A stretch of DNA of 64,000 bases from NCBI GenBank assembly GCA_022710645.1, contig JAKLGL010000001.1, positions 407,296-471,295 of the forward strand, read 5' to 3'. Positions within the stretch are counted from its first letter, which is position 1. Each line of letters opens with the position of its first letter. A program made the translations under genes and the position numbers. The notes beneath the pieces are model-generated. The model was not told where the DNA came from, did no database searches, and saw only the letters and a list, made by a program, of their open reading frames with translations. This DNA is from Patescibacteria group bacterium (lineage in GTDB: Bacteria > Patescibacteriota > Patescibacteriia > Magasanikbacterales > GWA2-37-8). This document shows positions 1 through 19,989 of the stretch, one piece after another.

Positions 1-770
1 CCATAATTGGTTGCAATAATATCACCCTGCCAAGTACCAGCGGAAATAGTGCCAAAAGATGACGCGCCGGTTAAAATCAAATTGGCGATTGTTGCTGTTG
101 CCATTGTTGCATTACCAACAACAGAGAGGTTTCCTGTAATACTGGATGTGGCAGTGCTTGAACCCATTGAAAAATTCGCCCCGGAAAAACCACCTGATAA
201 AATATCTAAATTTAAATTGTCATCCAACGCCAAAAGCGTATTAGCCACAGCAGTTGATGAAGCGTGAAAACCATCTACTCTATCGGAATTGAAAGCATAA
301 GGATGAGTCGCCAAAATCACTCGCGGAGATGCTTCGTCATCTGTATCAATCTTTACCGCCAAATAATACGTGCCCGTGCTAAAATCCAAATAACTCGGAA
401 AAGAAACACATGATCCTAAATTAACAGTAAAATATCCTTGAGCATCAGGTTGAACTTTGGGACAACTCCCTGAACTACCATCGCGAGTTTCAGTCCAAAG
501 AAGAGGTCCGGCTGAACTTGGTGTGTCTGTCGGTGCACCGCTAATCAAATGATTATAAATAGAAAATTGGATAGTGGTGGAGTTGGTAATTGGTGTGCCG
601 GTATTATCACGCAATCGCCCTTGATAATTTATTACATTTGGAACAGCAAAAACCTCGCTACCAATAAAAGAAAAAATTGTTATGAATGCAACAAAAAACA
701 AAGCCAACTGATGTTTATTTTTCAGAAAGCTAACCTGGAGTTTGGATTTTATTCCCCTCCGAATATGCAT
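1..770 (-). CDS. Secreted surface protein, partial (gene runs off the window edge; not in the ORF track)
   Basis: My own minus-strand translation from the ATG at 770-768 has no stops down to position 1. It begins MHIRRGIKSKLQVSFLKNKHQLALFFVAFITIFSFIGSEVFA/VPNVINYQGRLRDNTGTPITNSTTIQFSIYNHLISGAPTDTPS, which is a signal peptide followed by a Thr/Ser/Gly/Asn-rich beta-rich ectodomain. The plus-strand ORFs 7..267 and 549..824 are its antisense shadows. Confidence 0.55.
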   Translation of the reverse strand, partial: MHIRRGIKSKLQVSFLKNKHQLALFFVAFITIFSFIGSEVFAVPNVINYQGRLRDNTGTPITNSTTIQFSIYNHLISGAPTDTPSSAGPLLWTETRDGSSGSCPKVQPDAQGYFTVNLGSCVSFPSYLDFSTGTYYLAVKIDTDDEASPRVILATHPYAFNSDRVDGFHASSTAVANTLLALDDNLNLDILSGGFSGANFSMGSSTATSSITGNLSVVGNATMATATIANLILTGASSFGTISAGTWQGDIIATNY

Positions 771-955
771 AATATTTTTACTATATTATTATACCATATA
801 TACAATTTTCAAAAAACCTCTTAAACTAACGAAAAATAAATCAACTGTGGATAAGTTGGGGATAAACAAAAAACCCGCTTTTTCGCGAGTTTTCAAATTC
901 ATATTTTAGTATTTTATATAATCTTTAAATTTTGTAATCTTTCAATCTTTAAATT

Positions 956-1675
956 TTATATGTTAGCAAGCGCTGTTATCGTAATCACCCCATCATAACT
1001 TCCCGATTTTTGATCAAGGGGCGCACTGGCGCGATAATCAATAACTGTTACCGTTGTTCCCCAATTACAGGTGAGACATTGCATAAATTGAGAATTTATC
1101 GCAGGAAATCCGCCATATTTAGCGTTTAAAATAGTGTCATCACTCCCCCACCAAGCACTATTAAAATTGGAAGTTGTGCCTGTTTGCTTCACACGAAAAG
1201 ATAGATTATTTCCCGGTGTAGTAGTGGCATTACCACTCCCACTTGGGTTCCAAGAAGTATAATCAGGAAAATCGTTTACTTGGTTGGTTATCATATCCAA
1301 AGTTGAAGTCGGGTCTTCTCTTTTTACTGATAAATTATAACCACTAAATGAACCGGGCATAGTAACATAAACAGACGAACTGACAAAAGTTGGAATATCC
1401 GGTAAAATCTCACCAAAATTTACCGTCGGATCAATAGTTATGGTCATCACAGGAAATTCCATCACTAAACCGTGATCGTAAATATAATTGGAACTTGTAG
1501 ATCTTCCAACAGCCGGATCCCCTACTCCACCCTTTATCTGAAATTGTGTAGAGGTTACATCATGATAAACAGTGCCATAAGTTTGCCTGTCTATTTCGCT
1601 AGCAGCCAAAACAACCTGGGTAAAAAACAGGGTACAAAATATAATTATGGCTAGTTTGAGAGAAAAATAAGGCAT
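956..1675 (-). CDS. Small secreted surface protein, WxL-domain-like; paralog of 2012..2632
   Basis: It has a signal peptide (MPYFSLKLAIIIFCTLFFTQVVLAASE). It aligns by eye to the 2012..2632 product (GYNLSVKREDPTSTLD..DFPDYTSWNPSGSGNATTTPGNNLSFR.. versus GFNLQVKRDDGTSTLD..DFPDATAWNYSSPNSSATPGANLSFR..). It carries W-containing motifs (TSWNP, AWWGSD) and a C-terminal SGSYDGVITITALANI beta-strand, as in the WxL proteins of Csc clusters. Confidence 0.6.
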   Translation of the reverse strand: MPYFSLKLAIIIFCTLFFTQVVLAASEIDRQTYGTVYHDVTSTQFQIKGGVGDPAVGRSTSSNYIYDHGLVMEFPVMTITIDPTVNFGEILPDIPTFVSSSVYVTMPGSFSGYNLSVKREDPTSTLDMITNQVNDFPDYTSWNPSGSGNATTTPGNNLSFRVKQTGTTSNFNSAWWGSDDTILNAKYGGFPAINSQFMQCLTCNWGTTVTVIDYRASAPLDQKSGSYDGVITITALANI

Positions 1676-1676
1676 A

Positions 1677-1835
1677 AAACTAAAGCTCTAATCTCTAATT
1701 TCTAATCTCTAAACAAGTTCAAAAATCAAATTTCAAAATTGGATATTTGATATTTGTCCGTCCGTAGTCCAAAGGACGAAGGCGGATTAAATATTGTTTA
1801 GGATTTAGAGCTTAGGATTTAGGGTTTGATATTTT
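1677..1835. repeat. Palindromic intergenic element, TAAGCTCTAA family (member 1), in the divergent promoter region
   Basis: aaagctctaatctctaatttctaatctctaaacaa...gtttaggatttagagcttaggatttagg, with a nested hairpin gtccgtccgtagtccaaaggacgaaggcggat. The same family occurs at 44088-44200 and 52486-52605. Confidence 0.5.
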
Positions 1836-2011
1836 ATTTATTATACTTGATTTTCACTTTTTTCACAAAAATGCCACTTATCCACACTTATATCACCATT
1901 TCCCCTATTATCAAAAAAATCAAAAAATAGTATAATACACGTTGGAATAACTTTAACAACAAGTTATTTCTAAAATAAAAAATAATTTTATTTATTAATT
2001 TAATTTATTTT

Positions 2012-2632
2012 ATGAGGAGGAAACTTCTTTCTTTCATCGTCCTTATGGCGATGTTTACCGCTTATAGCGGATATCTAAATCTCGGCATAGCTCAAGCTGC
2101 CGAAGACAGTGATCAACAAACTATAGTTTTGTATGTCACTTCAACTATCACTTTAACCTTGGCAACTTCTACGATAAATCTTGGTACCTTGACTCCGGGA
2201 ACTCCTATTACCGGAAACACTTCTTTGACAGTTACTACCAATGATTACAATGGTTTCAATTTACAAGTAAAAAGAGATGACGGCACTTCCACTTTGGATT
2301 TGGACGCTTCTCCGACAGTAGATTTTCCAGATGCTACAGCTTGGAACTATTCTTCACCGAATTCTTCCGCTACTCCGGGAGCCAATCTTTCTTTCCGTTT
2401 GATGGAAACCGGAACTGATGCAGCTTTGGTTTCTACAACTCTTTGGGGTGCTGATGCCGGAACTAAACTTTGGGCCGGCTTTCCAAGTAGTAATCAACGA
2501 GTCACCGGTATTGATAGTTACGTAGGCGCTGCTCAAAATGTAGCTTACGAATTACGCGCTGACGCTCCAGCTACTCAACAATCTGGACAATACACTGGTA
2601 CCGTCACTTTCACCGCAATCACCAACCCATAA
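2012..2632 (+). CDS. Small secreted surface protein, WxL-domain-like; paralog of 956..1675
   Basis: AGGAGG-type start context and a signal peptide MRRKLLSFIVLMAMFTAYSGYLNLGIAQA/AE. It has TLWGADAGTKLWAGFP and a C-terminal QSGQYTGTVTFTAITNP. It is transcribed divergently from its paralog. Confidence 0.6.
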   Translation: MRRKLLSFIVLMAMFTAYSGYLNLGIAQAAEDSDQQTIVLYVTSTITLTLATSTINLGTLTPGTPITGNTSLTVTTNDYNGFNLQVKRDDGTSTLDLDASPTVDFPDATAWNYSSPNSSATPGANLSFRLMETGTDAALVSTTLWGADAGTKLWAGFPSSNQRVTGIDSYVGAAQNVAYELRADAPATQQSGQYTGTVTFTAITNP

Positions 2633-2656
2633 AAATTAAAAATTAAAATTAAGTTT

Positions 2657-3607
2657 ATGAAAAGCACATACGGTAAATTATTTTTGGTTATATTGGTAAC
2701 CGTAACATGTGCGCTTTTCAAAATAGAAGCTGCGTCCGCGCAGCTTTCTATTTCTATCTACCCGCTTTCCTTCAAAGCACAAGTGAATCCGGGAGATACA
2801 TGGAGGGGTAGCGTCACTGTTATCAACCCGAACGATTTTGCCATTTCCGTTCGCCCGGAAAAAGAAAATCTTGTCGGCGGTTCAGAAGGAGAAATTATTT
2901 TAACCGGAGAAACTGATCAAAATTATGGCTTAGCTTCTTGGGTAAAATATGATTCAAACAAAGAAATAATCTTGGCGGCTGGAGAAAGAAGAAAAGTGGA
3001 TTTTTCTTTGATTGTTCCCGCTAACGCTCAACCCGGCGGTCATTATGGAGCTGTTTTATTTCGCGGAACGGAAATAAATAAAAAATCTTCCGGTGAAAGC
3101 GGGCTTGGTGTAGCCGGACGCGTAGGATCAGTAATGCTTTTTGAAGTCAGCGGAGATGTTCAGAAAACCGGTGAAATAAGCTCCCTTGAAACCAAGAAAT
3201 TTATAGCTCACGGACCTATCGATTTGACTTTTAAAGTCAAAAATACCGGTAACACCTTCTTCTTACCAGAAGGTAAAGTGGAATTCAAACATTTTTTCAA
3301 AACTTTTGAAACCACTTGGGAGCCACGCGTAGTATTCCCTGGATACGATAGAACATTCAAGACAAATCTTGATAAAAAATATCTTTTTGGCCCTGTCAAA
3401 GCCACTATTTTGGCAAAAATGAGCGATGGAGCGGAGTTAACTCCGATTTCCGTAACTATTTGGGCTTGGCCTTGGAAAGAAACTTTGGTTCTACTTTGTA
3501 TTATCGTAACACTTTGGTTATTGAAACTTTGGTTGCTTAAAAACTTCAAAATTGTTAAAATAGAGAAAACGGAAAATAAAGACGAAAATAAAAAAGGAGA
3601 TGCCTAA
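2657..3607 (+). CDS. DUF916/DUF3324-like cell-surface protein with a C-terminal transmembrane anchor (CscA-like)
   Basis: It has a signal peptide, an N-terminal LSISIYPLSFKAQVNPGDTWRGSVTVINPNDFAISV beta-domain and a C-terminal TM (LVLLCIIVTLWLLKLWLLKNF) followed by a charged tail. This architecture and its position next to WxL-like genes mirror Csc/WxL loci. Confidence 0.5.
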   Translation: MKSTYGKLFLVILVTVTCALFKIEAASAQLSISIYPLSFKAQVNPGDTWRGSVTVINPNDFAISVRPEKENLVGGSEGEIILTGETDQNYGLASWVKYDSNKEIILAAGERRKVDFSLIVPANAQPGGHYGAVLFRGTEINKKSSGESGLGVAGRVGSVMLFEVSGDVQKTGEISSLETKKFIAHGPIDLTFKVKNTGNTFFLPEGKVEFKHFFKTFETTWEPRVVFPGYDRTFKTNLDKKYLFGPVKATILAKMSDGAELTPISVTIWAWPWKETLVLLCIIVTLWLLKLWLLKNFKIVKIEKTENKDENKKGDA

Positions 3608-4706
3608 ACGATTGTCAAAATCAATCTTTGTGACGCAAGCCTCGAAATATTTCCTTTTGGGGCTTGTGTTTTTATTATTGGCTTTACCAACTTTGGTTTT
3701 AGCCGCCGTAGCCACACAAAATGTCACTATCACCATCAATAACAGTTCTTATCATTGTGCTAATGGTACTCAAGATTATGACGAAACCGGTATTGACTGC
3801 GGAGGGTCTCTTTGCGGAACTTGCGGTTCGCATTGTACAAATGGAATAAAAGATTTTGATGAAGTCGGAGTTGATTGTGGAGGTTCTTTGTGTCCGACTT
3901 GTAGTGGTGGGGGCGGAGGTGGTGGAGGAGGCGGTGGCGGTTCTCTGCCGATTCTCCTTTCTACTATCAATTTTTCCGGAATTGCTTATTCAAACGCCAA
4001 AATATTTATTTTACGCGATGGAATTTTGATTAATACTTTTTTTACCTCATCATCCGGAGCTTTTCAATATTCTTTAAATTCTATTACCGCCGGAAATTAT
4101 CGCTACACTTTTTATGCGCAAGACGCTCGCGGCGGATATTCTACACATTTGGTTTTTCCTCTAACTGTTGTTGCGGGAAACTCTTACCAAGTAAACAATA
4201 TCTTGATTCCGCCAACACTGTATTTCAATTCTCAAGAAATAAAACGCGGAGAAAAAATGGAATTTTACGGTCAAAGTGCGCCGAATTCAATTTTGTTTTT
4301 TGAACTGAAAAATTCAACTTCCGGAAGTACTTCCACCTTTCAAACTATAGCCGATCCTTCAGGAAAATTTTCTTATCTTCTTGAAACTTCCGGAATGATA
4401 GAGGGTAGTTATGAAATAAAAATTAAAATAAAAATTGCAACAACTGAAAGCGCTTACAGTAATTCTTTTCCTTTTTCAATAGGTGCTAAAACCGTAGAAA
4501 AACCGATTTCAACGACAAAATGTCCGGCTAAAGGAGATCTCAACGGCGATTGCCGTGTAAATTTGGTTGATTTCTCTATCGCGGCTTACTGGTATAAACG
4601 CACCGTCGCGTCGAGTTTTATAAATACGGAAAATTCTCAACTTAATGGCGACGATATTATCAATTTGATAGATTTCAGTATTTTGGCTTATTATTGGACG
4701 GGCTGA
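3600..4706 (+). CDS. Secreted dockerin-containing protein with duplicated Cys-rich motif and a poly-Gly linker
   Basis: AAGGAG RBS, overlapping the previous stop by 8 nt. It has a signal peptide, the repeats DYDETGIDCGGSLCGTCG and DFDEVGVDCGGSLCPTCSG, and G12 (nt 3905-3945). The C-terminus has two dockerin-type Ca-binding repeats, DLNGDCRVNLVDFSIAAYWY and LNGDDIINLIDFSILAYYW (the DxNxDxxxNxxD pattern). Confidence 0.7.
   Translation: MPKRLSKSIFVTQASKYFLLGLVFLLLALPTLVLAAVATQNVTITINNSSYHCANGTQDYDETGIDCGGSLCGTCGSHCTNGIKDFDEVGVDCGGSLCPTCSGGGGGGGGGGGGSLPILLSTINFSGIAYSNAKIFILRDGILINTFFTSSSGAFQYSLNSITAGNYRYTFYAQDARGGYSTHLVFPLTVVAGNSYQVNNILIPPTLYFNSQEIKRGEKMEFYGQSAPNSILFFELKNSTSGSTSTFQTIADPSGKFSYLLETSGMIEGSYEIKIKIKIATTESAYSNSFPFSIGAKTVEKPISTTKCPAKGDLNGDCRVNLVDFSIAAYWYKRTVASSFINTENSQLNGDDIINLIDFSILAYYWTG
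3901..3948 (+). repeat. Imperfect (GGN)n simple repeat encoding poly-Gly
   Basis: ggtggtgggggcggaggtggtggaggaggcggtggcggt lies inside the dockerin protein gene. Confidence 0.8.
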
Positions 4707-4749
4707 TGAAGTTAGAAGTTTATAAAGTTTATAAAGTTATAAAGTTGAT
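4707..4749 (+). repeat. Tandem AGTTTATAA / AACTTTATAAAGTT-type palindromic 9-nt repeats abutting the start codon
   Basis: gaagttagaagtttataaagtttataaagttataaagttgatATG. Confidence 0.6.
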
Positions 4750-5670
4750 ATGAAAAAAGTGCTAGGGATAATTTTAATTTTATTCTGCTGTCTGTGTTTT
4801 GCCAGGCCTGCTCGTGCTGCGGAATTTTTTGCGACAGCTTCGAACTATGCTCCTGAAATAAACGATTACGTGCAAATTGACATATTTATCGATACGCAAG
4901 GAGAAGAAATAAACGCTTTGGAAACCGCCGTTGTTTTCCCTGAAAATCTATTGGAGTTGGCGGATTTTTCTTATGGTGATTCGGTTATCAATTATTGGGT
5001 GGAAAAACCTCATCAAACCGACGAACATAATAAAATATTTTTTTCTGGCATTACTCCCGGCGGTTTTAATGAAAATTCAGCTTATTTAATTTCTTTGATT
5101 TTTAAAACAAAAAATACCGGCCGAAGCGAAATAACTTTTTCTCAAAATAAGACTTTGAAAAATAACGGGTTCGGCACGGAGGTGGAAAGTGTCGGCAAAA
5201 AACTGACTTTTAACATTCAAACCGGTCTCAAAGGTGAAGATGTGGAGAATATTTATAAGAATTTGGATAAAATTCCACCTGAAGATTTTGAAATTTTTAT
5301 TTATGAGGATAACAATATAGTTCCGGACAAAAAAGCTTTGATCTTTGACGCCACAGATAAAGGTTCCGGCATATCTCATTATGAAGTGTTGGAAGAAAAA
5401 ATAGGACGATTGTTCGGCTGGGAATTTAAAATCGGCCGTTGGACACCGGCAACAAGTCCTCATGTTTTACAAGATCAAAAAATGCGCAGCAATATTTATG
5501 TCAAAGCCGTAGATAGAGCCGGAAACGAACGCATTGTTTCTTTAATGTCAGTTCAAACCCCAAAATGGTATACGAATTTGAATTTTTGGGTTATAATAAT
5601 AACGATAATAATACTTCTTATTTTATCCAGGAGGGCTTATGCAAAATTTTCGGGGAAAAATAAAAATTAA
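4750..5670 (+). CDS. Cohesin-like domain surface protein with a C-terminal TM anchor
   Basis: Signal peptide (ARPARA/AE). The segment FFATASNYAPEINDYVQIDIFIDTQGEEINALETAVVFPENLLELADFSYGDSVINYW matches the cohesin pattern (aligned block, internal reference, 'FxYDpxxLE'-like). It ends in a C-terminal TM WVIIITIIILLILS plus a basic tail. Confidence 0.55.
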   Translation: MKKVLGIILILFCCLCFARPARAAEFFATASNYAPEINDYVQIDIFIDTQGEEINALETAVVFPENLLELADFSYGDSVINYWVEKPHQTDEHNKIFFSGITPGGFNENSAYLISLIFKTKNTGRSEITFSQNKTLKNNGFGTEVESVGKKLTFNIQTGLKGEDVENIYKNLDKIPPEDFEIFIYEDNNIVPDKKALIFDATDKGSGISHYEVLEEKIGRLFGWEFKIGRWTPATSPHVLQDQKMRSNIYVKAVDRAGNERIVSLMSVQTPKWYTNLNFWVIIITIIILLILSRRAYAKFSGKNKN

Positions 5671-6445
5671 ACTGACGATTTTTATCATCTCAGTTTTTAC
5701 TTCTTTTCTTTTTACTTCTGTTTCCGAAGCGGCTTCTTTGTATTTCTCGCCAAGCTCGGCTACCTATCGTCTCGGTGAAACTTTTCAAGTTTCTATGTAT
5801 GTCAACAGCACCGATCAAGCTATGAATGCCGCGCAAGCAACCATAATTTTTCCAACTGATAAACTTTCAGTTATTTCCGTTTCCACCAAATATTCTATTT
5901 TTTCTCTGATGGTGGAAAATCCGACATTTTCCAATACGGGGGGAAGCGCCGGTTTTTCCGGAATAGTTCTTAATCCAGGTTATACTGGAAAAAATGGACG
6001 ACTGGTGACCGTAAATTTTGCCGCCAAAGCGCTCGGTAAAGCAACCGTCACTATCAGCGGAGCTCAAGTTTTGGCCAATGACGGAGTAGGTACAAATATT
6101 TTAACCGGTAAAGGAAGTGCCACAATCACTATCATTGAAAAAGCGAAGACTGAACCTAAACCGGAAATCAAACCTGAAGTCAAACCTATTGTTTCCGAAA
6201 TCGTTACCACCACACCTACCACTACCGTAATTTATGTTACTACTACGCAATATATTATCACTACCACTGCTTGCGCTTTTGATAAATTACCGGTCATTTA
6301 TTTCAAAATCGGAGGACTTACCACCGGACCGAGTTTCTTATTAATCTTACTTCTCATACTTTCAGCTTTGATTACTATTTATAGTTTTTATAAAGGGTTC
6401 AAGTATCCGGAAAAAAAGAAAAGAATTTTTGGAAAAAGAAGCTAA
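5639..6445 (+). CDS. Cohesin-like domain surface protein with a Thr/Pro-rich stalk and a C-terminal TM anchor
   Basis: AGGAGG RBS. It overlaps the previous gene by 32 nt, suggesting translational coupling. LYFSPSSATYRLGETFQVSMYVNSTDQAMNAAQATIIFPTDKLSVISVS...VTVNFAAKALGKATVTISGAQVLANDG is cohesin-like. It has a PEIKPEVKP linker, a TTTPTTT stalk and a TM LLILLLILSALITIY. Confidence 0.55.
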   Translation: MQNFRGKIKIKLTIFIISVFTSFLFTSVSEAASLYFSPSSATYRLGETFQVSMYVNSTDQAMNAAQATIIFPTDKLSVISVSTKYSIFSLMVENPTFSNTGGSAGFSGIVLNPGYTGKNGRLVTVNFAAKALGKATVTISGAQVLANDGVGTNILTGKGSATITIIEKAKTEPKPEIKPEVKPIVSEIVTTTPTTTVIYVTTTQYIITTTACAFDKLPVIYFKIGGLTTGPSFLLILLLILSALITIYSFYKGFKYPEKKKRIFGKRS

Positions 6446-6461
6446 ATAAAAATACCCCGTC

Positions 6462-6911
6462 CTAAACATAGGACGGGGTTTGTTTTTTAATCTTTGCGCC
6501 GTTCTTCTTTTTTTCTTTCAACGGCGTAATTTTTTTACTCTTTAACCATTGGTTGTAATGTGCCGGACAATAACCACGAGACGTTGCCGGACGATCACAC
6601 CCTTCGGCTTGGCAGATTTTTCCTTTGTTGGTTTGTTTTTCAACAATAGGATGCTTTCTTTTGATCTTACGAAACGGACGATCCATTTCAAAGTCTTCAT
6701 AATGCGCTTTACAATAACCTTCGCTAACTCCGTTCAACTTACAACCGGAAACAAGACATTTTTTAAAATTAGAAAATAATTTCTTGATTTCTTCCGGCGG
6801 TTTCAAATATCCAAAATAAATCAACTGATAACAATTACGGCACACCCCTTTGGTTTTTGCCGGTTTTTTACCGCATGCAGCACAAACACCTTGCTCTTTT
6901 AGATTGTCCAT
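6462..6911 (-). CDS. Cys-rich protein with three tandem zinc-ribbon-like repeats (C-x2-C-x7-9-G[VY]C-x2-[CH]Y)
   Basis: AAAGGAG RBS. The repeats are CAACGKKPAKTKGVCRNCY, CLVSGCKLNGVSEGYCKAHY and CQAEGCDRPATSRGYCPAHY, separated by basic linkers, with a lysine-rich C-terminal tail. I do not recognise a family. Confidence 0.7.
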   Translation of the reverse strand: MDNLKEQGVCAACGKKPAKTKGVCRNCYQLIYFGYLKPPEEIKKLFSNFKKCLVSGCKLNGVSEGYCKAHYEDFEMDRPFRKIKRKHPIVEKQTNKGKICQAEGCDRPATSRGYCPAHYNQWLKSKKITPLKEKKKNGAKIKKQTPSYV

Positions 6912-7200: not shown

Positions 7201-7230
7201 AATTATTTTTAAAAATACAATTTATCAAAG

Positions 7231-7302
7231 TGCCCCCAGAGAGAATCGAACTCCCATCCTCAGGTTCGAAGCCTGATATTTTATCCATTAAACTATAGGG
7301 GC
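7231..7302 (-). tRNA. tRNA-Arg (anticodon UCG), 72 nt, no encoded CCA
   Basis: I folded it manually. The acceptor is GCCCCTA/TGGGGGC+A, the anticodon stem is TCAGG/CCTGA with loop CTTCGAA (anticodon TCG), and the T-arm is GGGAG-TTCGATT-CTCTC. Confidence 0.85.
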
Positions 7303-8366: not shown

Positions 8367-9554
8367 ATGAATAAAAAAATTTTTATTTGGCTAATTGCCG
8401 CGTTTATCGGTGCCGGACTCTTCGCCGGTTATGTATTAGCGACAGAAGAAGATGGTTTTGAGGACGGAGCTTTGGTAAAAATTAAAAATCAAAAAACTAT
8501 TTATCTCATTGAAGAAGGTTTGAAGAGACCGTTTTTGAACCCTGAGGCTTTCAAGGCTTACGGATATTCTTGGTATGAAGTAGAAACTGTAACCGAAGAA
8601 GAAATCGCCGACTTTGAAACAGGCCCTTATATCAAAACACCGACGATTTTGATAAAAGCCAATAAACTTTTCATTCGCAAATGGCCGACTCGTTTCAGTA
8701 AAATTTTGGCAACCGCTCAAAAAGATGAAACTTATGAACTGATAGACAACAACGGATCTTGGTATAAAATAAAAGGCGGAGAAAAAATAACCGGTTGGAT
8801 TTCCGCTCGCTACGCTATAATCTTGGATGAAGAAATGGATGAATTTGTAGCCACCAAAGAAGAGGCAAAAAAAGAAGAATTAAAAACGGAAACAACCAAA
8901 ACAGAAGAGACAAAAACAGAAATAAAAAATGAAACTCCGACAGCGACAGAAACTGCTCCGACAAAATCTTTGACTTTAACATATCTTGGCAACGGAAAAT
9001 TCTCTTGGAAAAAAGTAGGAACTTTTTCGCAAGGATATAAATTAGTTTGGTCCAAAACCGCCAATCCAACCTACCCCCTTCGCGATAGCGATAAATATGC
9101 TTTTTATTCCGAACCGGAAACATCTGTCGGATACGTTAATGCTTTTGCCGGTGAAGGAAAATATTATGTCAGAGTTTGCGAATACTTGGGAGGTAAATGC
9201 GGAATTTACAGTAATCAAGTAACCATAACCTTGCTTGGAGATACAGAAAAAGCAGTGGAAAAAGAAACAGCTCAAGCTGTAACTTCAATAACTTTGATTT
9301 CTTTGGGTGACGGAAAACTTTCTTGGAAAGTAAACGGTTATTCCAAAAACGGTTTCAAAGTTGTCTGGTCGCAAAATTCTATGCCTACATATCCGACTCG
9401 TGACGGTGATCAGTACCATTATTATTCCGAGCCGACCAAAACTTCAGACATTGTTGACAACTTTAGCGGTGAAGGAAAATATTATGTCAGAGTTTGCGAA
9501 TACTTGGGAGGAAAATGCGGAATTTATAGCAACCAAATAGAAATAAATTTGTAA
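8367..9554 (+). CDS. Membrane-anchored SH3b-domain protein with two ~106-aa tandem repeats
   Basis: It has an N-terminal TM, a bacterial SH3-like segment (KWPTRFSKILATAQKDETYELIDNNGSWYKIKGGEKITGWISARY) and a TETTKTEETKTE linker. It then has two near-identical repeats ending GEGKYYVRVCEYLGGKCGIYSNQ (DNA repeats about 8986-9240 and 9304-9550). Confidence 0.7.
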   Translation: MNKKIFIWLIAAFIGAGLFAGYVLATEEDGFEDGALVKIKNQKTIYLIEEGLKRPFLNPEAFKAYGYSWYEVETVTEEEIADFETGPYIKTPTILIKANKLFIRKWPTRFSKILATAQKDETYELIDNNGSWYKIKGGEKITGWISARYAIILDEEMDEFVATKEEAKKEELKTETTKTEETKTEIKNETPTATETAPTKSLTLTYLGNGKFSWKKVGTFSQGYKLVWSKTANPTYPLRDSDKYAFYSEPETSVGYVNAFAGEGKYYVRVCEYLGGKCGIYSNQVTITLLGDTEKAVEKETAQAVTSITLISLGDGKLSWKVNGYSKNGFKVVWSQNSMPTYPTRDGDQYHYYSEPTKTSDIVDNFSGEGKYYVRVCEYLGGKCGIYSNQIEINL

Positions 9555-10018: not shown

Positions 10019-11527
10019 TCATCTTTCTTCCAGCAAACTTTTTCCTTCCATCAAACCAGGCACTTTCAAACCCATCATTTCTAAGATAGTTGGCGCTACA
10101 TCGCTAAGATTTCCGTTTTTCATTTTTTTATTTTTATCCAAAATAATTACCGGAACCGAACTCAACGTATGTGCCGTATGTTTTTCGTTTTTTTCCACAT
10201 CATAAGTAATTTCCGCATTCCCATGATCCGCGGTTATCAAGATTTGATAACCTTTTTTCAAACCTGCTTCTACTACTTTTTTCAATTGTTCATCAACGGT
10301 TTCTACAGCTTTGATTATTGCTTCATGATTGGCAGTATGTCCAACCATATCGGCATTAGCAAAATTGATAAAAATAAAATTCGTTTCGCTGGCAATTTCT
10401 TCAACCGCTTTTTCCGCAATTTCTTCGGCTTTCATCGCCGGAGCCAAATCATGAGTATTGATATCTTTACGGCTAGGCACCAAAATATGCTTTTCTTTTT
10501 CATACGGTTTTTCCACTCCCCCGTTCAAAAAGTAAGTAGCGTGAGCAAACTTTTCAGTTTCCGCAATATGTGCTTGAGTTAAACCGTTTTGACTAATTTC
10601 TTTAGCTAGTGTAGTTTCGATATTTAATGGCGGAAAAACCACCAACGAATTATTTTCTTTTTCATATTCCGTCATGGTAACAAAACAAATGTTTTTTTCT
10701 TTAGCCACTTCACTGATTTTTTTAGAAAACATTCTGGCTCTATCGGCTCGAAAATTAAAAAATATTATTGCGTCATTTTCAGAAACTTGATAATTTTTTC
10801 CATTATCATCCAAAAATACCACAGGTTCTAGATGTTCATCCACTATTCCTTGTTCATATAAATTTTTTATTATTTCTGAAGGTTGGCGTGTCTGAACTCT
10901 GGTGCCAATACCGCAAAAAATAGCATCTTCAGCTCGTGCCAGACGATCCCAATTATTATCTCTGTCCATAGCATAAAATCTTCCGGTAGCTGTAGCGATA
11001 AAACCGACCCCCACATCATCAATGGTATTTTCCAATTCTTTGAGATAAAACCAGCCCGAAGTAGGCGGAGTGTCTCGTCCATCCATAAACGCGTGAATAG
11101 CGATTTTTTCCACACCTTTTTCTTTGGCAATTTTCAAAATAGCTTTCAAGTGATTGCTATGACTATGAATTCCTCCGGGTGAGAGTAAGCCTTTCAAATG
11201 TAAAACAGAATTATTTTTTTTCACATGATCTAAAGCTTTGAGCAGTGCTTCATTTTGATTCAAATTACCGTTTTCAATCGCTTTATTTATTCGCACCAAA
11301 TCGGTATCAATCACTTTTCCCGCTCCGATAGTCATGTGCCCTACTTCACTATTCCCCATTTGTCCTTCAGGCAATCCCACGGCCAAACCGCTGGCTTGAA
11401 GCAAAGAATGCGGATAATTTTCCCACAAATAATCAAAAAACTGGGTTTTGGCTTCCGCAATAGCGTTATGTTCTTTTTCTTTTCTATAACCCCAGCCGTC
11501 AAGAATTATCAAAATAGCTTTTTTCAT
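10019..11527 (-). CDS. gpmI: 2,3-bisphosphoglycerate-independent phosphoglycerate mutase
   Basis: N-terminal ILIILDGWGYR, the SEVGHMTIGAG motif and the length fit the iPGM family. Confidence 0.9.
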   Translation of the reverse strand: MKKAILIILDGWGYRKEKEHNAIAEAKTQFFDYLWENYPHSLLQASGLAVGLPEGQMGNSEVGHMTIGAGKVIDTDLVRINKAIENGNLNQNEALLKALDHVKKNNSVLHLKGLLSPGGIHSHSNHLKAILKIAKEKGVEKIAIHAFMDGRDTPPTSGWFYLKELENTIDDVGVGFIATATGRFYAMDRDNNWDRLARAEDAIFCGIGTRVQTRQPSEIIKNLYEQGIVDEHLEPVVFLDDNGKNYQVSENDAIIFFNFRADRARMFSKKISEVAKEKNICFVTMTEYEKENNSLVVFPPLNIETTLAKEISQNGLTQAHIAETEKFAHATYFLNGGVEKPYEKEKHILVPSRKDINTHDLAPAMKAEEIAEKAVEEIASETNFIFINFANADMVGHTANHEAIIKAVETVDEQLKKVVEAGLKKGYQILITADHGNAEITYDVEKNEKHTAHTLSSVPVIILDKNKKMKNGNLSDVAPTILEMMGLKVPGLMEGKSLLEER

Positions 11528-11535
11528 AATCGTTT

Positions 11536-13575
11536 TTATAGATCATCCAAGTCTCTCAAAAAACTTCCCGGTTTAATCTTTGGTGTTTTTTCATAATAAG
11601 CGCTTTCCTCGGGCTCATAAGTTATACCACTCAAACTATCATTGAAAACTGTGGGGTTGGCAGATACCAAAGATTTATCATTGAGCAAATCATTATCTAT
11701 TTCACTCAAAAACATACTTGGCCCGGAAAGTGAATCTCCCCACCCCCCGCCGACCATCGGATAAGTCAAAAATAATTTTTTCTTGGCACGAGTAATGGCA
11801 ACATAAAATAATCTACGTTCTTCTTCCAAACCCTCGGTCTCGCTAAGCGACCTGTCGCTCGGGAATGCGCCACTGCTCAAATTGATAATAAATACATTTT
11901 CCCACTCCAGACCCTTGGCTTGATGTACGGTGGATAAAACTATTTTATCTTTTATCTCTTCTTTTTGATTATCTATATTTTTTACGGTAAAACCTTCTTG
12001 CAAGGCCGCTTCTGCCAAAAAATCTTCCAGTTTTTCATATTTCTCCGCAAAAGTGACAAGTTGTTTAATATCTGCTTTTCTGTCTTTATAATCCAAATAT
12101 TCGTTTTCCAAATAATCTTTATAAGCCGAATCCAAAATTTTCAGAAGCATTTGACTTGGCGTTCGATCGCTCGTCAGCATCTCATCCCAAATTTTTAAGA
12201 AATTTTCAAAACCATTTTGCGCTTTTCCACCTAAATTATTTTTTATATTTGGTAATTCCTCTATATTTTGCAGACTGTTTATAAGTTCCAAAATTTTTTC
12301 AACCGCCGCCGGACCGATCCCCTCTTCGTGAAGTAAAACTCGATTCCAAGCCGCAACATCGCTCAAATTATTGGCGATACGTAAATAACTCAACACATCT
12401 TTGATGTGCGCGCGTTCAAAAAATCTCATTCCTCCTCGATAATCATATGGTATCCCGGCTTTGGTAAGTTCCATTTCCAACATTTGACTATGCGCGCTGG
12501 CGCGAAAAAGCACCGCTATTTCATTTGGCGTCACACCTTTTTCGAGTGACTCAATTATCTTTTCCAAAACAAAACTCGCTTCCATACTTTGATCCATTTG
12601 TGGTCGCAATTCCGGTTTTACTCCACCGGTTTGAACCGGTTTCAAACTTTTTTTATATTGTTTGGTATTGTACGAAATAATATCATTGGCCACATCCAAA
12701 ATTTCTTTGGTACTGCGATAATTTGTTTCCAATTTAAAAATTTTGGCATTTGGATACTGTTTTTCAAAATTTAAAATATTTTCAATATTGGCAGCGCGGA
12801 AAGAATAAATACTTTGAGCATCATCGCCCACCACCAAAACATTTTTATGAACATTTGCCAGTTTTTTGATTATTTCGGCCTGAATTTTATTGGTATCTTG
12901 ATATTCATCAACCATGATATATTGAAATTGCGTAGCAAATTTATTGCACACTTCTTCATTTTGCAACAACAATAACCAATTGGTTAATAAATCATCAAAA
13001 TCCATGGAATTAGCTTCTTTTTTTCGTTTTTCGTATTCATTCCAAACATTTTTTATTTGTTCCACCACAGAAAACCATTGCGGATATTTCATGTCCAAAA
13101 CCTCTTCAATCGTAGTGTCGGCATTTTTGGCAAACGAAATAATTCCTTGCAAAACGTTGGCGGAAGGATTTTTTTTATCAGCGCCGGAAATGAAAATATC
13201 TTTGGCGCAAAGTTTTATCAAACTGCGACTATCTTCGCTATCTAAAACAGAAAACTTTTCCGTGTAACCGACAAGTGTTGCATAGCGTTTCAACGTTTTA
13301 TAAGCAATACTGTGAAATGTTCCCGCCCAAGGTAGAAACTTTTTTCCATTGGTCAATTGTTGGACTCGCTCCATCATTTCTTTCGCCGCTTTATTGGTAA
13401 AAGTAACCAACAATATATTTTCCGGATTTATCCCCTGCTCCAGTAAATAAGCTACGCGATAAGTCACGGTTCTTGTTTTACCACTCCCCGCGCCGGCCAA
13501 TACTAAACAAGGACCGTCACCCATATAGATCACGGCCAGTTGTTCTTGGTTAAGCTCTTTGGAATAATCAATCAT
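11536..13575 (-). CDS. UvrD/PcrA-family ATP-dependent DNA helicase
   Basis: Walker A AGAGSGKTRTVTYRVAYLL, FTNKAAKEM and the length fit the UvrD/PcrA family. Confidence 0.9.
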   Translation of the reverse strand: MIDYSKELNQEQLAVIYMGDGPCLVLAGAGSGKTRTVTYRVAYLLEQGINPENILLVTFTNKAAKEMMERVQQLTNGKKFLPWAGTFHSIAYKTLKRYATLVGYTEKFSVLDSEDSRSLIKLCAKDIFISGADKKNPSANVLQGIISFAKNADTTIEEVLDMKYPQWFSVVEQIKNVWNEYEKRKKEANSMDFDDLLTNWLLLLQNEEVCNKFATQFQYIMVDEYQDTNKIQAEIIKKLANVHKNVLVVGDDAQSIYSFRAANIENILNFEKQYPNAKIFKLETNYRSTKEILDVANDIISYNTKQYKKSLKPVQTGGVKPELRPQMDQSMEASFVLEKIIESLEKGVTPNEIAVLFRASAHSQMLEMELTKAGIPYDYRGGMRFFERAHIKDVLSYLRIANNLSDVAAWNRVLLHEEGIGPAAVEKILELINSLQNIEELPNIKNNLGGKAQNGFENFLKIWDEMLTSDRTPSQMLLKILDSAYKDYLENEYLDYKDRKADIKQLVTFAEKYEKLEDFLAEAALQEGFTVKNIDNQKEEIKDKIVLSTVHQAKGLEWENVFIINLSSGAFPSDRSLSETEGLEEERRLFYVAITRAKKKLFLTYPMVGGGWGDSLSGPSMFLSEIDNDLLNDKSLVSANPTVFNDSLSGITYEPEESAYYEKTPKIKPGSFLRDLDDL

Positions 13576-13578
13576 AAA

Positions 13579-14124
13579 TTAACTTTGCGCAAATTTTTCC
13601 AAAGAATCTGATTGTTTATTTTTTTTAAAATTTTTCGGAACTTTATCTTCTTCTTCGGTTGTTTTTTCACCATCTTCATGATTGTCTTTTAAATAATATT
13701 CATTTAAAGATGAAGCACTTCGCATTCCAACACTTTGTTTTTTAGCAATAAATTGTTGTTTCCAAAGAGTATATTTTTCCGTAGTTATTAAATGTAATTT
13801 CCCGTTTTCCATTTTCAATTCCACTATTCCTTGCTCCACAGCTTCCAAAGCCGGATCATTGTTTATAATATTTTGTTTTCGCAATTCCTTTGTTCTTGTT
13901 TTTATAAAATCATTAACATCGTCATTTTCGGAAATTTGTCCGGAAGTAATCATCTTATTAAGATAATCTTCAAATTCCTCAAATCCGCCAAAACCCTCTA
14001 CTACATACCTAATACTGTCGTTGGCTCTATTCAGAGACTCTTTTTCCTTTTGTTTTTTTTCGTCCATATTATAGAATGCGTCTGTATGAAATTTTTCATT
14101 ATTTTCTGATGACATATATAACAA
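13579..14124 (-). CDS. Hypothetical acidic protein
   Basis: It lies immediately downstream of the helicase on the same strand; charged, no motif. Confidence 0.5.
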   Translation of the reverse strand: MLYMSSENNEKFHTDAFYNMDEKKQKEKESLNRANDSIRYVVEGFGGFEEFEDYLNKMITSGQISENDDVNDFIKTRTKELRKQNIINNDPALEAVEQGIVELKMENGKLHLITTEKYTLWKQQFIAKKQSVGMRSASSLNEYYLKDNHEDGEKTTEEEDKVPKNFKKNKQSDSLEKFAQS

Positions 14125-14190
14125 TTTTAATTTAAAGCTAAACTATAATACCATATCATTGATTTTTTTCGCAAGATATGATAACTTAGT

Positions 14191-14254
14191 CTATAAAGTC
14201 AAAAGTCTTTAAAGTCCATCAAGTCGCGACTTTACAGACTTTATAGATTATTTT
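14191..14254 (+). repeat. Array of concatenated AGTC...GACT palindromes abutting the tgt start codon
   Basis: agtctataaagtc aaa agtctttaaagtcc atca agtcgcgactt tacag actttatagatta ATG. Confidence 0.6.
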
Positions 14255-15409
14255 ATGTTTTTTGAAACACTAAAAAACGACAACCAAACCAAAGCTCGTA
14301 CCGGCATTATTCATACCGACCACGGGGACATTGAAACCCCAGCTTTTATGCCTGTGGGCACTCAAGCAACTGTTAAAACCCTGGATCAACAGGATCTTCT
14401 TGATATTGGCGCGCAAATAATTCTTGGCAATACTTATCATCTACATTTACGTCCGGGCGAAGATCTTATTGCAGGACAAGGCGGTTTACATAAATTCATG
14501 AACTGGAATAAGCCGATTTTAACCGATTCCGGCGGATTTCAGGTTTTTTCACTTGGTTTACAAAAAAAAGAATCCGGTCAAGGCGGATTAACAAAAATCG
14601 ATGAAGATGGAGTGACTTTTCAAAGTCATATTGACGGAAGTTCTCATCGTTTTAACGCAGAAATTGCCATTGATATACAGCACAAACTTGGAGCTGATAT
14701 TATCATGGCGTTTGATGAATGCACCCCAGATACTGCCCCGCATGAATACATAGAAGAAGCTATGGAGCGCACTCATCGTTGGGCTAAGCGATGTCTTACG
14801 GAACACCAAAAAAATACTTCTTATCATGGTTATCGCCAATTTTTATTTGGTATTATTCAAGGCGCCGGAGATGAGGAATTACGTAAAAAATCCGCACAAT
14901 TTATCTCCTCTCTTCCTTTTGACGGTATAGCCATTGGTGGAGAAAGCATCGGCTACAATATGGAAGCTACCAAAAATATTTTGGATTGGGTTGTACCAAT
15001 AATTCCGGAAAATAAACCTCGCTATACTATGGGACTTGGACTTTCTCCTCTGGATTTATTGGAAGCTGTAGAACACGGCGCCGATATGTTTGACTGCGTC
15101 GCTCCAACGCGTCTCGCGCGACATGGAATGCTTTTTGTTTTTGATAAAGAAAAGGAACATCGTCTCAATATCAAAAATGCCAAATTTGAAAATGATCTCT
15201 CCCCTATAGATCCAAAGTGTTCTTGTCCGACTTGTAAAAATTACACCCGTTCATATTTACATCATTTATTTTCTGCCGATGAGATGACCGGCATGCGTTT
15301 GGCAACAATTCACAATTTATACTTTATGTTGAACTTGATGAAAGAAACGCGAGAAGCTATAAATAAAGATGAATTTACAAAATTACTAAATGATTGGAAA
15401 ACGGCTTAA
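14255..15409 (+). CDS. tgt: Queuine tRNA-ribosyltransferase
   Basis: FMPVGT, LGNTYHL and DSGGFQ motifs, plus the zinc site CSCPTCKNY...H. Confidence 0.9.
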   Translation: MFFETLKNDNQTKARTGIIHTDHGDIETPAFMPVGTQATVKTLDQQDLLDIGAQIILGNTYHLHLRPGEDLIAGQGGLHKFMNWNKPILTDSGGFQVFSLGLQKKESGQGGLTKIDEDGVTFQSHIDGSSHRFNAEIAIDIQHKLGADIIMAFDECTPDTAPHEYIEEAMERTHRWAKRCLTEHQKNTSYHGYRQFLFGIIQGAGDEELRKKSAQFISSLPFDGIAIGGESIGYNMEATKNILDWVVPIIPENKPRYTMGLGLSPLDLLEAVEHGADMFDCVAPTRLARHGMLFVFDKEKEHRLNIKNAKFENDLSPIDPKCSCPTCKNYTRSYLHHLFSADEMTGMRLATIHNLYFMLNLMKETREAINKDEFTKLLNDWKTA

Positions 15410-15595
15410 CCAAGCCGTTTTTTCTTTACCCTGTACCGAACTTGTTCTGGCGCAGGGTTTACCCTGAACCGTCCGCCTTTGGCGGACTAGTTTAGGGTGT
15501 TTAGATATATCAACAAACATTGACAAAATCGCTAAAATATGCTATATTTAAACGTTGATCTTTGACAATTAACAACCTCATGAAGGAGAAATATC

Positions 15596-16393
15596 ATGCA
15601 AGAAAAAGTTCAATGGATTGCAATCGGGGTGTTTTTTACCCTACTGGTATCAATGATTGCCATATGGTTATGGCAAAAGATCGTCAAAAAACCTGTTCCG
15701 ACAGTAGTGGAAAAAATCAAAAAAGAAAACGACGAGGGAGAGAAAAAAAGAAAACCAGCTGAACGGGTTTTTAACGCCACTGAAGCAAGGTTGCAAAAGC
15801 AGTTGAGAAACACTATCAGTCTATTCACTACCGACCACAATAAAGACACTGGGTTTGCTTATGAAGCTGATGTTATTCAAAAACTCTTTTCAGCCATTCC
15901 TCTGGCTATCGCCTATTATCTGGAGAAGTTCAAAACTATTCCAGAAGACGAGAATGTCATTCCCATACTCCCGATAATTCCGGAAAATCTCTGGTCACCA
16001 AATCAGGTGATCTCTTCGATTTTTACCAATGGAAAATGCAACTTGACTGCAGGCCAACTGCAAAATTCCACTTCTGTCCCCGAAGAACCGTATTTTTCTT
16101 TTTTTGTCACTGTTCATCCGAAAAATCCGGAAGAGATACTTCAACTATTTGATCGCACTCAATTGAGCGCGACAGCTAATGAGCTGATTTTGACTTCTTA
16201 TTTCAAAGACAGCACATGGAGAGATCGTAGCGTCTTTTTCCTCTCAAACGGCTGTCTGGCTGATGATAAACCCGTCACTTTCATGTGGAACTTCCCAACA
16301 GGAAGTCCTCAACTGGTGAAACTGCCGGAGAAACAGGCAAGAGAGTATTACCTGGTAAGTTGCCGGGAGAGAATCTGCTTTGATAAAAAATAA
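15596..16393 (+). CDS. Membrane-anchored hypothetical protein (GC-elevated)
   Basis: GAAGGAG RBS and an N-terminal TM. GC and codon usage are shifted relative to neighbours. Confidence 0.6.
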   Translation: MQEKVQWIAIGVFFTLLVSMIAIWLWQKIVKKPVPTVVEKIKKENDEGEKKRKPAERVFNATEARLQKQLRNTISLFTTDHNKDTGFAYEADVIQKLFSAIPLAIAYYLEKFKTIPEDENVIPILPIIPENLWSPNQVISSIFTNGKCNLTAGQLQNSTSVPEEPYFSFFVTVHPKNPEEILQLFDRTQLSATANELILTSYFKDSTWRDRSVFFLSNGCLADDKPVTFMWNFPTGSPQLVKLPEKQAREYYLVSCRERICFDKK

Positions 16394-16406
16394 GAAGGAG
16401 TTCAAG

Positions 16407-16823
16407 ATGAAAAAAAGAGAAACGGAAAAGCTATTGAACGACATTACCTTTCTCCTGGGCTTTGCTCTGTTGCTTGGTTGGGTCGTCGGCGGAATAGTGG
16501 TAAGCTTGGATCTCAAAAAAGAATATCTTCTGATAAACTTAATCGGCGCCAGCGTCGGTTGCGGTTTTTTCTTCCTGTTTTTTGCGGTGAAGAACAAGAT
16601 ATTTTTTTGGACTATGACCATTCCGGTGATTGCCTTGTCGCTCTTGACAATACTCTTCTTCAATTCTCCATTTGAAAATGTTTGGGGAAAAGCCTGGAAC
16701 TTTTCTCGATGGTTTTGGCTTACTGGCATCGCCATTCTCATTTCCTATTTTTGGAAAAAAGGAGAGAAGTGGTTAATGATAGACAGCCGAACCGGGGAAC
16801 CTATAAAATTCCCGGAAAAATAA
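16407..16823 (+). CDS. Polytopic small membrane protein (GC-elevated)
   Basis: AAGGAG RBS 7 nt upstream of the ATG at 16407; the ORF-track start at 16380 is unlikely. It has four hydrophobic segments. Confidence 0.6.
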   Translation: MKKRETEKLLNDITFLLGFALLLGWVVGGIVVSLDLKKEYLLINLIGASVGCGFFFLFFAVKNKIFFWTMTIPVIALSLLTILFFNSPFENVWGKAWNFSRWFWLTGIAILISYFWKKGEKWLMIDSRTGEPIKFPEK

Positions 16824-16825
16824 GT

Positions 16826-16868
16826 TCTTTCAATCACCCGCCCTGTAACAGGGGCGGGTTTTTTATTT
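16826..16868 (+). terminator. Strong rho-independent terminator
   Basis: cacccgccctg-taaca-ggggcgggtttttt. Confidence 0.85.
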
Positions 16869-16911
16869 TGTATTTGCCTTTATCACCTTTTTCCACTAAA
16901 ATACTTTTATT

Positions 16912-17379: not shown

Positions 17380-17383
17380 TTTT

Positions 17384-18826: not shown

Positions 18827-18834
18827 TTGTTTTT

Positions 18835-19959: not shown

Positions 19960-19989
19960 AAAGACGACCTTTCGGTCGTCTTTTTAATT

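Follow-up and report, generated by a model that had tools for sequence, protein, structure and literature searches.

The stretch of DNA analysed here, called the window throughout, comprises 64,000 nucleotides (nt) of contig JAKLGL010000001.1 from a Patescibacteria group bacterium of the Magasanikbacterales (GenBank assembly GCA_022710645.1, positions 407,296 to 471,295, forward strand). Proteins identical to the products of the locus studied are recorded from a Candidatus Magasanikbacteria metagenome-assembled genome. The locus occupies positions 1–6450, where open reading frame (ORF) calling gives seven genes for exported proteins in a row, split over two divergent transcription units. The minus-strand unit consists of g1, a terminator-like hairpin and then the start of a protein of 3047 amino acids (aa; positions 770–1); the plus-strand unit comprises g2, g3, g4, g5 and g6. 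The initial annotation, made from the sequence, had described six or seven successive genes for secreted or membrane-anchored proteins and had read them as a WxL (Csc)-like module fused to a cohesin–dockerin set. All of these genes are indeed present where the annotation placed them, with signal-like segments throughout. The features of the locus are the following:

1–770, minus strand: N-terminus (256 codons) of a fibre-like protein whose gene runs past the window start (full gene at 10906–20049 of locus L005).
812–785, minus strand: promoter-like site in the gap between g1 and the fibre gene, from a consensus scan only.
869–894, minus strand: terminator-like hairpin in the same gap, from a consensus scan only.
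956–1675, minus strand: g1, 239 aa, PamT-like pilin-domain protein with a signal peptide, an N-terminal extension of ~45 aa and the pilin domain.
1676–2011: divergent intergenic region with promoter-like hexamers at 1908–1936 (plus) and 1868–1840 (minus), from a consensus scan only.
2012–2632, plus strand: g2, 206 aa, minimal pilin with a signal peptide, the conserved N-terminal strand QQTIVLYVT (nt 2114–2146) and the pilin domain.
2657–3607, plus strand: g3, 316 aa, chaperone-like protein of the DUF916 / WxLIP / PamC-D type, with a membrane helix at nt 3473–3544.
3600–4706, plus strand: g4, 368 aa, dockerin protein in the PamR position, with the dockerin at nt 4530–4703.
4750–5670, plus strand: g5, 306 aa, divergent cohesin (nt ~4819–5229) followed by an immunoglobulin (Ig)-like domain and a C-terminal membrane helix (nt 5572–5628).
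5639–6445, plus strand: g6, 268 aa, cohesin (nt ~5732–6148), Pro/Thr-rich linker and C-terminal membrane helix (nt 6332–6388).
6454–6479: strong bidirectional intrinsic-terminator-like hairpin closing the g2–g6 unit, with an 11-bp stem containing 7 G-C pairs and T runs on both strands.

An N-terminal hydrophobic signal-like segment is present in all seven proteins, and g3, g5 and g6 end in a C-terminal hydrophobic helix with a basic tail. The frames of g3 and g4 overlap by 8 nt and those of g5 and g6 by 32 nt, the latter overlap being found also in related loci. The hairpin at 869–894 suggests that g1 is partly uncoupled from the fibre gene. One public annotation places in this gap a 37-aa ORF (789–902, minus strand), which overlaps the hairpin (894–869) and is probably not a gene. 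Counted over the whole 64-kb window, the dockerin and the DUF916 gene each occur exactly once, and there are two cohesins and two pilin-like genes.

The Pam pilus, known from Candidatus Mycosynbacter amalyticus and other Saccharimonadia and represented in NCBIfam by NF058578, NF058579 and NF058581, provides the main point of comparison for these genes (10.64898/2026.03.03.709456). Cryo-electron microscopy has shown that the PamA and PamB filaments form by donor-strand exchange, and AlphaFold models led to the proposal that two membrane-anchored PapD-like chaperones, PamC and PamD, aid their assembly; PamT was proposed to be the tip cap, and PamR to end the filament via its N-terminal strand and to anchor it via a C-terminal membrane helix (10.64898/2026.03.03.709456). 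Firmicute WxL/Csc clusters, in turn, encode a small WxL protein, a large WxL protein and WxLIP, which consists of DUF916 and DUF3324 followed by a membrane helix (PMC9772566, PMC10599100). In these clusters, the DUF916 protein and its partner are predicted to interact by strand complementation.

The initial annotation had assigned to g3 the DUF916/DUF3324 architecture of CscA with a C-terminal transmembrane segment. At the family level, both the DUF916 assignment and the helix stand: many homologues with 37–46% identity to g3 carry PF06030 (precomputed matches) and are named DUF916, and the C-terminal hydrophobic helix spans residues 273–296, followed by a Lys-rich tail. As to DUF3324 (PF11797), no Pfam match exists in g3; the structure model nevertheless contains a second beta-sandwich domain and aligns with WxLIP over ~256 columns. 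A single-sequence search of the PDB with g3 returned nothing meaningful, whereas the g3 family profile matches the solved structure of EfmWxLIP1 (E 5e-3). The AlphaFold2 model, with a predicted local distance difference test (pLDDT) score of 91, displays two beta-sandwich domains and a C-terminal helix. When this model was compared with known structures by Foldseek, the WxLIP of Enterococcus faecium (9i1y/9i25) ranked top (E 1.4e-11), followed by the chaperones CfaA, CsuC, SafB, FimC, Caf1M and PapD, and also by RbmA.

The same protein leads to the Pam system. In a canonical Pam operon, designated L034, the gene at the chaperone position encodes a homologue with 30% identity to g3 (E 1e-37); it sits between the Pam pilins and PamR, and its neighbours pass or approach the NCBIfam Pam models. 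This is the one canonical operon that was scanned with the NCBIfam models: its PamT reaches 297 bits (cut-off 240), Pam_pilin_C recognises two of its pilins, and its PamR, which occupies the position of g4, reaches 231 bits. One family includes both the Firmicute WxLIP/DUF916 proteins and the Pam chaperones, as encoded by the chaperone-position genes of L034 and of further canonical Pam loci (L037, L050 and others). This points to a relationship between WxL/Csc clusters and Pam pili.

The two small proteins g1 and g2 are paralogues (37% identity over 176 aa, E 5e-30) lying beside the DUF916-type g3, and g1 can be aligned with the g2 family. Both carry the C-terminal Y-x-G-x-(V/I)-T-x-T-A strand quoted in the initial annotation, which is conserved throughout the family. 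The designation as WxL-like proteins, on the other hand, had to be abandoned. The W-x-L motif is absent from g1 and g2, whose tryptophans stand in FPDxTxWN and WWG contexts, and two or more W-x-L strings are present in only 2 of 70 members of the g1/g2 family. Likewise, Pfam WxL (PF13731) matches neither g1 nor g2 at E ≤ 1, nor any of 34 family members at E ≤ 0.01. What emerges instead is a pilin fold. The structure model of g2 (pLDDT 92.6) has as its top PDB matches subunits of donor-strand fibres, namely CfaB, CsuA/B and the pilin domains of FimF/G/H and PapG, with further matches to CupE, TasA and archaeal cannulae; searching the PDB with the g1/g2 family profile revealed no relatives, and with the single sequence of g1 nothing meaningful. 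Comparison of the g2 family with PamT/Pam_pilin_C-type proteins by hhalign gave a probability of 93% (E 3.5e-7) over the entire domain, as opposed to 3.6% for a beta-sandwich control. On this profile evidence, the g1/g2 family and the C-terminal domain of Pam pilins are distantly homologous.

The pilin domain is widespread, as 935 relatives were found in a search of 1.84 billion representatives. Multidomain relatives, which reach 3773 aa, carry it at their extreme C-terminus, as is the case in two-domain tip adhesins. Related loci pair a small protein with a large one ending in the same domain; in most loci with the full cassette, a large protein (440–2962 aa) of this kind is located upstream of the small pilin. 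The Magasanikbacteria lineage has in the place of the large protein a short g1 on the opposite strand and then the giant fibre.

Directly after the chaperone gene, in the operon position of PamR, comes g4. Its product consists of a signal peptide, the strand ATQNVTITINN (nt 3711–3743), two Cys-rich repeats, a Gly run (nt 3906–3944), two Ig-like domains and a dockerin, which forms the C-terminus without any hydrophobic helix. By hhalign, g4 matches the PamR-like set with a probability of 93.9% (E 1.6e-7) across both Ig domains, compared with 6–17% for the other beta-sandwich families of the cassette, used as controls; in position and in profile, g4 is therefore the equivalent of PamR. The textbook dockerin pair noted in the initial annotation is confirmed: the strings DLNGDCRVNLVDF and QLNGDDIINLIDF are found at residues 313 and 347, two EF-hand-like loops are present (DLNGDCRVNLVD and QLNGDDIINLID), and Dockerin_1 (PF00404) is matched by 28 of 34 members of the g4 family (best E 7.6e-12). 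The strand that comes straight after the signal peptide is of the alternating-hydrophobic type, has equivalents in most aligned orthologues and is followed by a Gly-rich linker. The Cys-rich repeats between the strand and the Gly run (residues 53–101, window 3756–3902) have the pattern C-x-N-G-x-x-D-x-D-E-x-G-x-D-C-G-G-x-x-C-x-x-C. This segment is lineage-variable: a fibronectin type III (FnIII) domain is found in Paceibacterota orthologues and the segment is absent in others.

The kinship of g3 with WxLIP would also be compatible with a static complex for surface display, a reading close to that of the initial annotation. Here g3 would hold g1 and g2 at the membrane permanently and one to one by strand complementation, following what is proposed for Firmicute WxL clusters; no filament would form, and the anchored cohesins would separately display g4 as a ligand or adhesin. 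In other genomes, the partners of g3 would then be the large adhesins that carry the same C-terminal domain. Such a complex would agree with the fact that the closest solved relative of g3 is WxLIP, including the complex of WxLIP with a long WxL protein (9i25), that the published model of WxLIP is a stable anchor and not a transient chaperone (PMC10599100), and that the set of a DUF916 protein with small and large proteins having a common C-terminal domain mirrors the WxL clusters. It would agree as well with a g2 lacking the N-terminal domain of PamA/PamB, and with the lineage-variable N-terminal region of g4, as expected of an exposed part that binds a ligand. However, g1 and g2 are not WxL proteins, the fold of g2 matches polymerising pilins, and the nearest characterised homologous system forms filaments. 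Furthermore, g4 is homologous to PamR, the proposed terminator and anchor of the filament, and stands in its position, and the dockerin and cohesin replace the PamR membrane helix and are not added to it. Overall, we consider a static complex unlikely, yet with a chance that is far from trivial.

The identification of g5 and g6 as cohesin proteins relies on their families. Within the N-terminal domain the two proteins are paralogous (24% identity over 140 aa, BLASTP E 8e-16), and hhalign relates the two families with a probability of 99.9% (E 3.5e-34). The g5 family profile matches the scaffoldin cohesins 5aoz and 5m2o of Ruminococcus flavefaciens (E 5e-6), while Pfam Cohesin (PF00963) is matched by 30 of 35 members of the g6 family (best E 1.3e-9); homologues of g6 with 50–88% identity carry PF00963, and some are named 'cohesin domain-containing protein' by NCBI. 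PDB searches with the single sequences of g5 and g6 returned nothing meaningful, and the g6 family profile found no relatives there. The two overlapping cohesin genes with C-terminal transmembrane anchors of the initial annotation are thus recovered as regards the 32-nt overlap, the helices and, at the family level, the cohesin identity. More generally, profile searches for cohesin and dockerin domains give matches for the families, the proteins of the window itself staying under the Pfam cut-offs.

Cohesins resembling those of R. flavefaciens scaffoldins in the g5 profile, and a type-I-like dockerin in g4, raise the question of a cellulosome-like scaffold, whose anchored cohesins would gather dockerin-bearing enzymes for polysaccharide degradation. 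However, the sole dockerin protein has no catalytic or carbohydrate-binding domain, being made of Ig-like domains and Cys-rich repeats only. Neither a glycoside hydrolase nor any other catalytic domain came up when the cassette proteins were compared with Pfam and NCBIfam, the downstream part of the window that was examined holds housekeeping genes, and the cassette is tied to the pilin and chaperone pair in genomes of the Candidate Phyla Radiation (CPR). As the cassette contains no enzyme, this reading was rejected; its chances are in our view negligible. The scaffold put forward in the initial annotation, i.e., anchored cohesins displaying a dockerin-bearing partner, is correct in that one conserved cassette is involved. 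The display of a separate ligand is the less likely role, since the location of g4 in the PamR position, with the Ig pair of PamR, makes it more likely that the cohesin–dockerin pair is the base anchor of a pilus.

The conservation of the gene neighbourhood in related genomes gives further information. A genome scan for relatives of g3 was positive in 520 species-representative genomes, and the neighbourhoods of the best 80 loci were analysed by calling ORFs and searching them with iterated g1–g6 profiles; 55 of these loci had enough flank to be informative. Nearly all of the best 80 loci, as listed, are labelled CPR, and the remainder carry doubtful labels. The full cassette, composed of pilin-like gene(s), g3, dockerin protein and cohesin(s), is found in 22 of the 55 loci; g3, dockerin and cohesin occur with no recognisable pilin in 10, and g3 with the dockerin only in 4. 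Another 16 loci are canonical Pam operons with neither dockerin nor cohesin, and 2 fall into other classes. Hence, the cassette is seen in 22–32 of the 55 informative CPR loci. Since many CPR genomes show this order of genes and the set is present in a single copy in the 64-kb window, the arrangement is not due to chance. Nor is it a fusion of two unrelated modules, as had been supposed, but one conserved operon type related to the Pam pilus operon. A cohesin lies within 8 kb in 32 of 36 dockerin-bearing loci, as against 0 of the 16 canonical Pam loci; the dockerin/cohesin loci and the canonical Pam loci are mutually exclusive among the 55 informative loci. As none of the 16 canonical loci carries either domain, the dockerin and cohesin appear to substitute for the PamR helix rather than to be added to it.

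A second type of cassette, Microgenomatia/Beckwithbacteria-like, was encountered in this survey (L030, L032, L035, L036, L040, L042–L044, L064, L068 and L082). Its order is a g3-like gene, a dockerin protein, a conserved protein of 520–590 aa, a small cohesin (175–186 aa), a second cohesin (~400 aa) and, last, a protein of ~370 aa. It contains no recognisable pilin, the ORFs upstream of g3 being unrelated enzymes, and its conserved additional proteins ('mid' and 'post2') have no profile similarity to pilins, chaperones or cohesins. In addition, cassettes of the CPR type were found in many TPA_asm records titled 'uncultured Gammaproteobacteria' or 'Pseudomonadales' (L008, L029–L033, L035, L036, L040, L054, L062, L064, L067–L069, L078 and L082). 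In one record with such a title, g3 is 85% identical to that of the window. These titles are probably taxonomic mislabels.

The survey also bears on the possibility that the pilus is real and the cohesin–dockerin set independent of it, g4 being a separate adhesin or matrix protein, or the cohesins capturing dockerins encoded elsewhere, with co-regulation as the only connection. The Microgenomatia-type cassette, with g3, dockerin and cohesins and no recognisable pilin alongside, could be understood in this way, and so could the presence of two cohesins for one dockerin and the fact that in several loci the g6-type protein is far longer and carries extra domains. Against this stand the tight gene order, with overlapping or abutting frames and one terminator after g6, and the match of g4 to PamR, whose position it holds. 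The absence of dockerins and cohesins from all 16 canonical Pam loci fits substitution, and within the 64-kb window there is no second dockerin. We regard an independent set as improbable.

Taken together, these data make us highly confident that the locus is a single conserved surface-organelle cassette related to the Pam and WxL systems. Its likeliest identity is a new and widespread variant of the Pam pilus with a cohesin–dockerin basal anchor. As for the mechanism, we favour, with slightly better than even confidence, a Pam-type donor-strand pilus that is assembled with the help of a chaperone and without an usher, and that is attached to the membrane at its base through the cohesin–dockerin pair. 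Because of homology and position, the same scheme as for Pam is proposed for this locus, with changes in the rod subunit, the tip protein and the terminator. All its proteins would be exported by Sec. g3, a predicted two-domain PapD/WxLIP-like chaperone held in the membrane by its C-terminal helix, would donate a strand and thereby cap the open groove of freshly exported pilin domains. g2, with its N-terminal strand QQTIVLYVT and an incomplete Ig-like domain, would be the rod subunit and would polymerise by donor-strand exchange. The distal end may be capped by the PamT-like g1, probably coupled in function to the neighbouring 3047-aa fibre, the would-be host-contact element. At the cell-proximal end, g4 would terminate the filament by giving its mature N-terminal strand to the last pilin, and its dockerin would plug into the cohesin of g5 and/or g6, in replacement of the membrane helix of PamR. 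In this scheme, the terminator retains the N-terminal strand and the Ig pair but has exchanged its helix for a dockerin, and the membrane helices are found on the two cohesin proteins instead.

Several observations weigh against this scheme. First, the proteins of the window score low with the relevant models: g3 matches PF06030 with E 1.1e-4 and 22.6 bits (gathering score 27.3), g4 matches Dockerin_1 with E 4.6e-4 and 20.8 bits (gathering score 22.9), g1 matches CPR_pilus_PamT with E 2.5e-6 and 27 bits (cut-off 240), and g2 matches Pam_pilin_C with E 0.0036 and 17 bits (cut-off 55), while the window's own g5 and g6 have no direct match to Pfam Cohesin. Second, the second dockerin loop of g4 begins with Q and not with D, and the cassette has two cohesins for its single dockerin. 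Third, besides its signal peptide g2 has only a short strand and the C-terminal domain; it has no N-terminal domain of the PamA/PamB type, and it is this domain that stabilises the PamA/PamB filaments. No PamA/B-like gene is present within the window. Finally, the N-terminal segments of g4 and g2 have a similarity of 17.7, compared with 14–15 and 15.3 for controls. As this signal is weak and not lineage-specific, per-locus co-variation of the two strands was set aside as evidence and can be taken as a weak hint only.

A broader proposition would combine three elements: that the cohesin–dockerin pair is the basal anchor of a pilus that represents the common Pam-type form in Parcubacteria-type CPR lineages, that Pam chaperones, DUF916/WxLIP proteins and PapD-like chaperones constitute one superfamily, and that WxL/Csc and Pam are the single-membrane counterparts of chaperone–usher systems. 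We advance this joint proposition tentatively, its chances being somewhat short of even.

The 3047-aa protein beside g1 has a signal-like N-terminus, repeated GIGTSTP-type motifs and no Pfam match. A weak match was obtained with the N-terminal model of the Bdellovibrio mosaic adhesive trimer. All Magasanikbacteria-type loci have the fibre downstream of g1, and homology to its first ~170 aa is found in the giant proteins whose genes directly follow PamR in the canonical Pam operons of Saccharibacteria. This conserved N-terminal module, common to the fibre and the canonical Pam giants, may be what links fibres of this kind to the pilus system. Whether the fibre corresponds to a split-off N-terminal part of the large adhesins seen in other loci was considered, and the idea was discarded: the fibre lacks a g1/g2-like domain, and BLAST reveals no similarity between it and those adhesins.

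The downstream parts of the window that were examined consist of housekeeping genes, the exceptions being one secreted protein with an SH3 domain and a few ORFs without annotation. Converging on the cassette terminator is the gene of a 149-aa Cys-rich protein of the zinc-ribbon type (6462–6911, minus strand), with weak matches to DUF5763 and Zf_WRKY19; this position is kept in the four contigs carrying the window sequence. A tRNA-Arg gene (anticodon TCG; 7230–7302, minus strand) is the sole RNA gene that ARAGORN and Rfam find in the window. The SH3-domain protein (8367–9554, plus strand) is 395 aa long. Besides its bacterial SH3_3 domain, it has a linker rich in Lys, Glu and Thr and, in duplicate, a C-terminal domain of ~90 aa ending in YYVRVCEYLGGKCGIYSNQ. 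It may be a further surface or wall-binding protein.

The initial annotation had also held the combination to be uncharacterised. This is no longer so for the core system, which is the subject of a 2026 preprint, and still applies to the cohesin–dockerin variant, since WxL, DUF916, cohesin and dockerin are not mentioned there (10.64898/2026.03.03.709456). Our literature search found no description of a cohesin–dockerin/DUF916 cassette in CPR. CPR bacteria depend on attachment to host cells, and their attachment organelles are little known. The Pam pilus was identified only in 2026 and in one Saccharimonadia species; the present locus would be a widespread and divergent variant of it in other CPR lineages, one that the present NCBIfam models miss. 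The cassette provides a concrete hypothesis of how a pilus without an usher could be attached to a cell with a single membrane and, if this is true, a structural, non-cellulosomal role for the cohesin–dockerin interaction. A further outcome is a connection between the Pam chaperones and the DUF916/WxL (Csc) clusters found in lactobacilli, enterococci and Listeria; these clusters have long been puzzling and may work by the same principle of strand complementation.

The likeness to the Pam system extends over most of the locus: a PapD-like chaperone anchored in the membrane (g3), pilin domains with distant homology to Pam_pilin_C/PamT, a PamR homologue with two Ig domains (g4) directly after the chaperone, a giant fibre with a common N-terminal domain next to the operon, the lack of an usher gene and the restriction to CPR. 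On the other hand, the locus is without the two-domain pilins PamA/PamB/PamE, and its sole candidate for the rod is a 206-aa protein consisting of a strand and the C-terminal domain. The protein in the PamR position has in common with PamR the Ig pair (in PamR an RbmA-like Ig/FnIII pair) but ends in a dockerin and not in a membrane helix, and two genes encoding a cohesin and a membrane helix are added. All proteins of the locus remain under the NCBIfam Pam cut-offs, and the hosts of the variant are Magasanikbacteria, Paceibacterota, other Parcubacteria and some Saccharibacteria, along with the Microgenomatia-type variants.

With the WxL/Csc clusters, the locus shares a member of the DUF916/WxLIP family with two domains and a helix, and the grouping of this DUF916 protein with partners that have one common C-terminal domain, a small one and, in genomes other than this, a large one. 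It differs from them in having neither a DUF3324 sequence match nor an LPXTG-bearing CscD-type gene. Cohesins and dockerins, in turn, are absent from those clusters, whose hosts are Firmicutes and not CPR.

Chaperone–usher pili resemble the locus in the PapD-like fold predicted for the chaperone g3, the incomplete-Ig pilin fold predicted for g2 and the donor-strand mechanism that would follow the same lines. Unlike in these pili, no usher-family match was found among the cassette proteins with Pfam and NCBIfam, and there is no outer membrane; to our knowledge, CPR bacteria are without one. In addition, the chaperone is tethered to the membrane, and the proposed dockerin–cohesin anchoring has no counterpart in chaperone–usher pili.

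Finally, as with the anchoring scaffoldins of cellulosomes, a cell-anchored cohesin would hold a dockerin-bearing structural protein; Pfam Cohesin and Dockerin_1 are matched at the family level. Cellulosomes are anchored to the cell by SLH domains or by sortase. Here, by contrast, the anchor is a C-terminal membrane helix, the cargo comprises no enzymes or carbohydrate-binding modules, and the cohesin–dockerin pair stands in the context of a pilus operon in ultra-small, non-cellulolytic bacteria.

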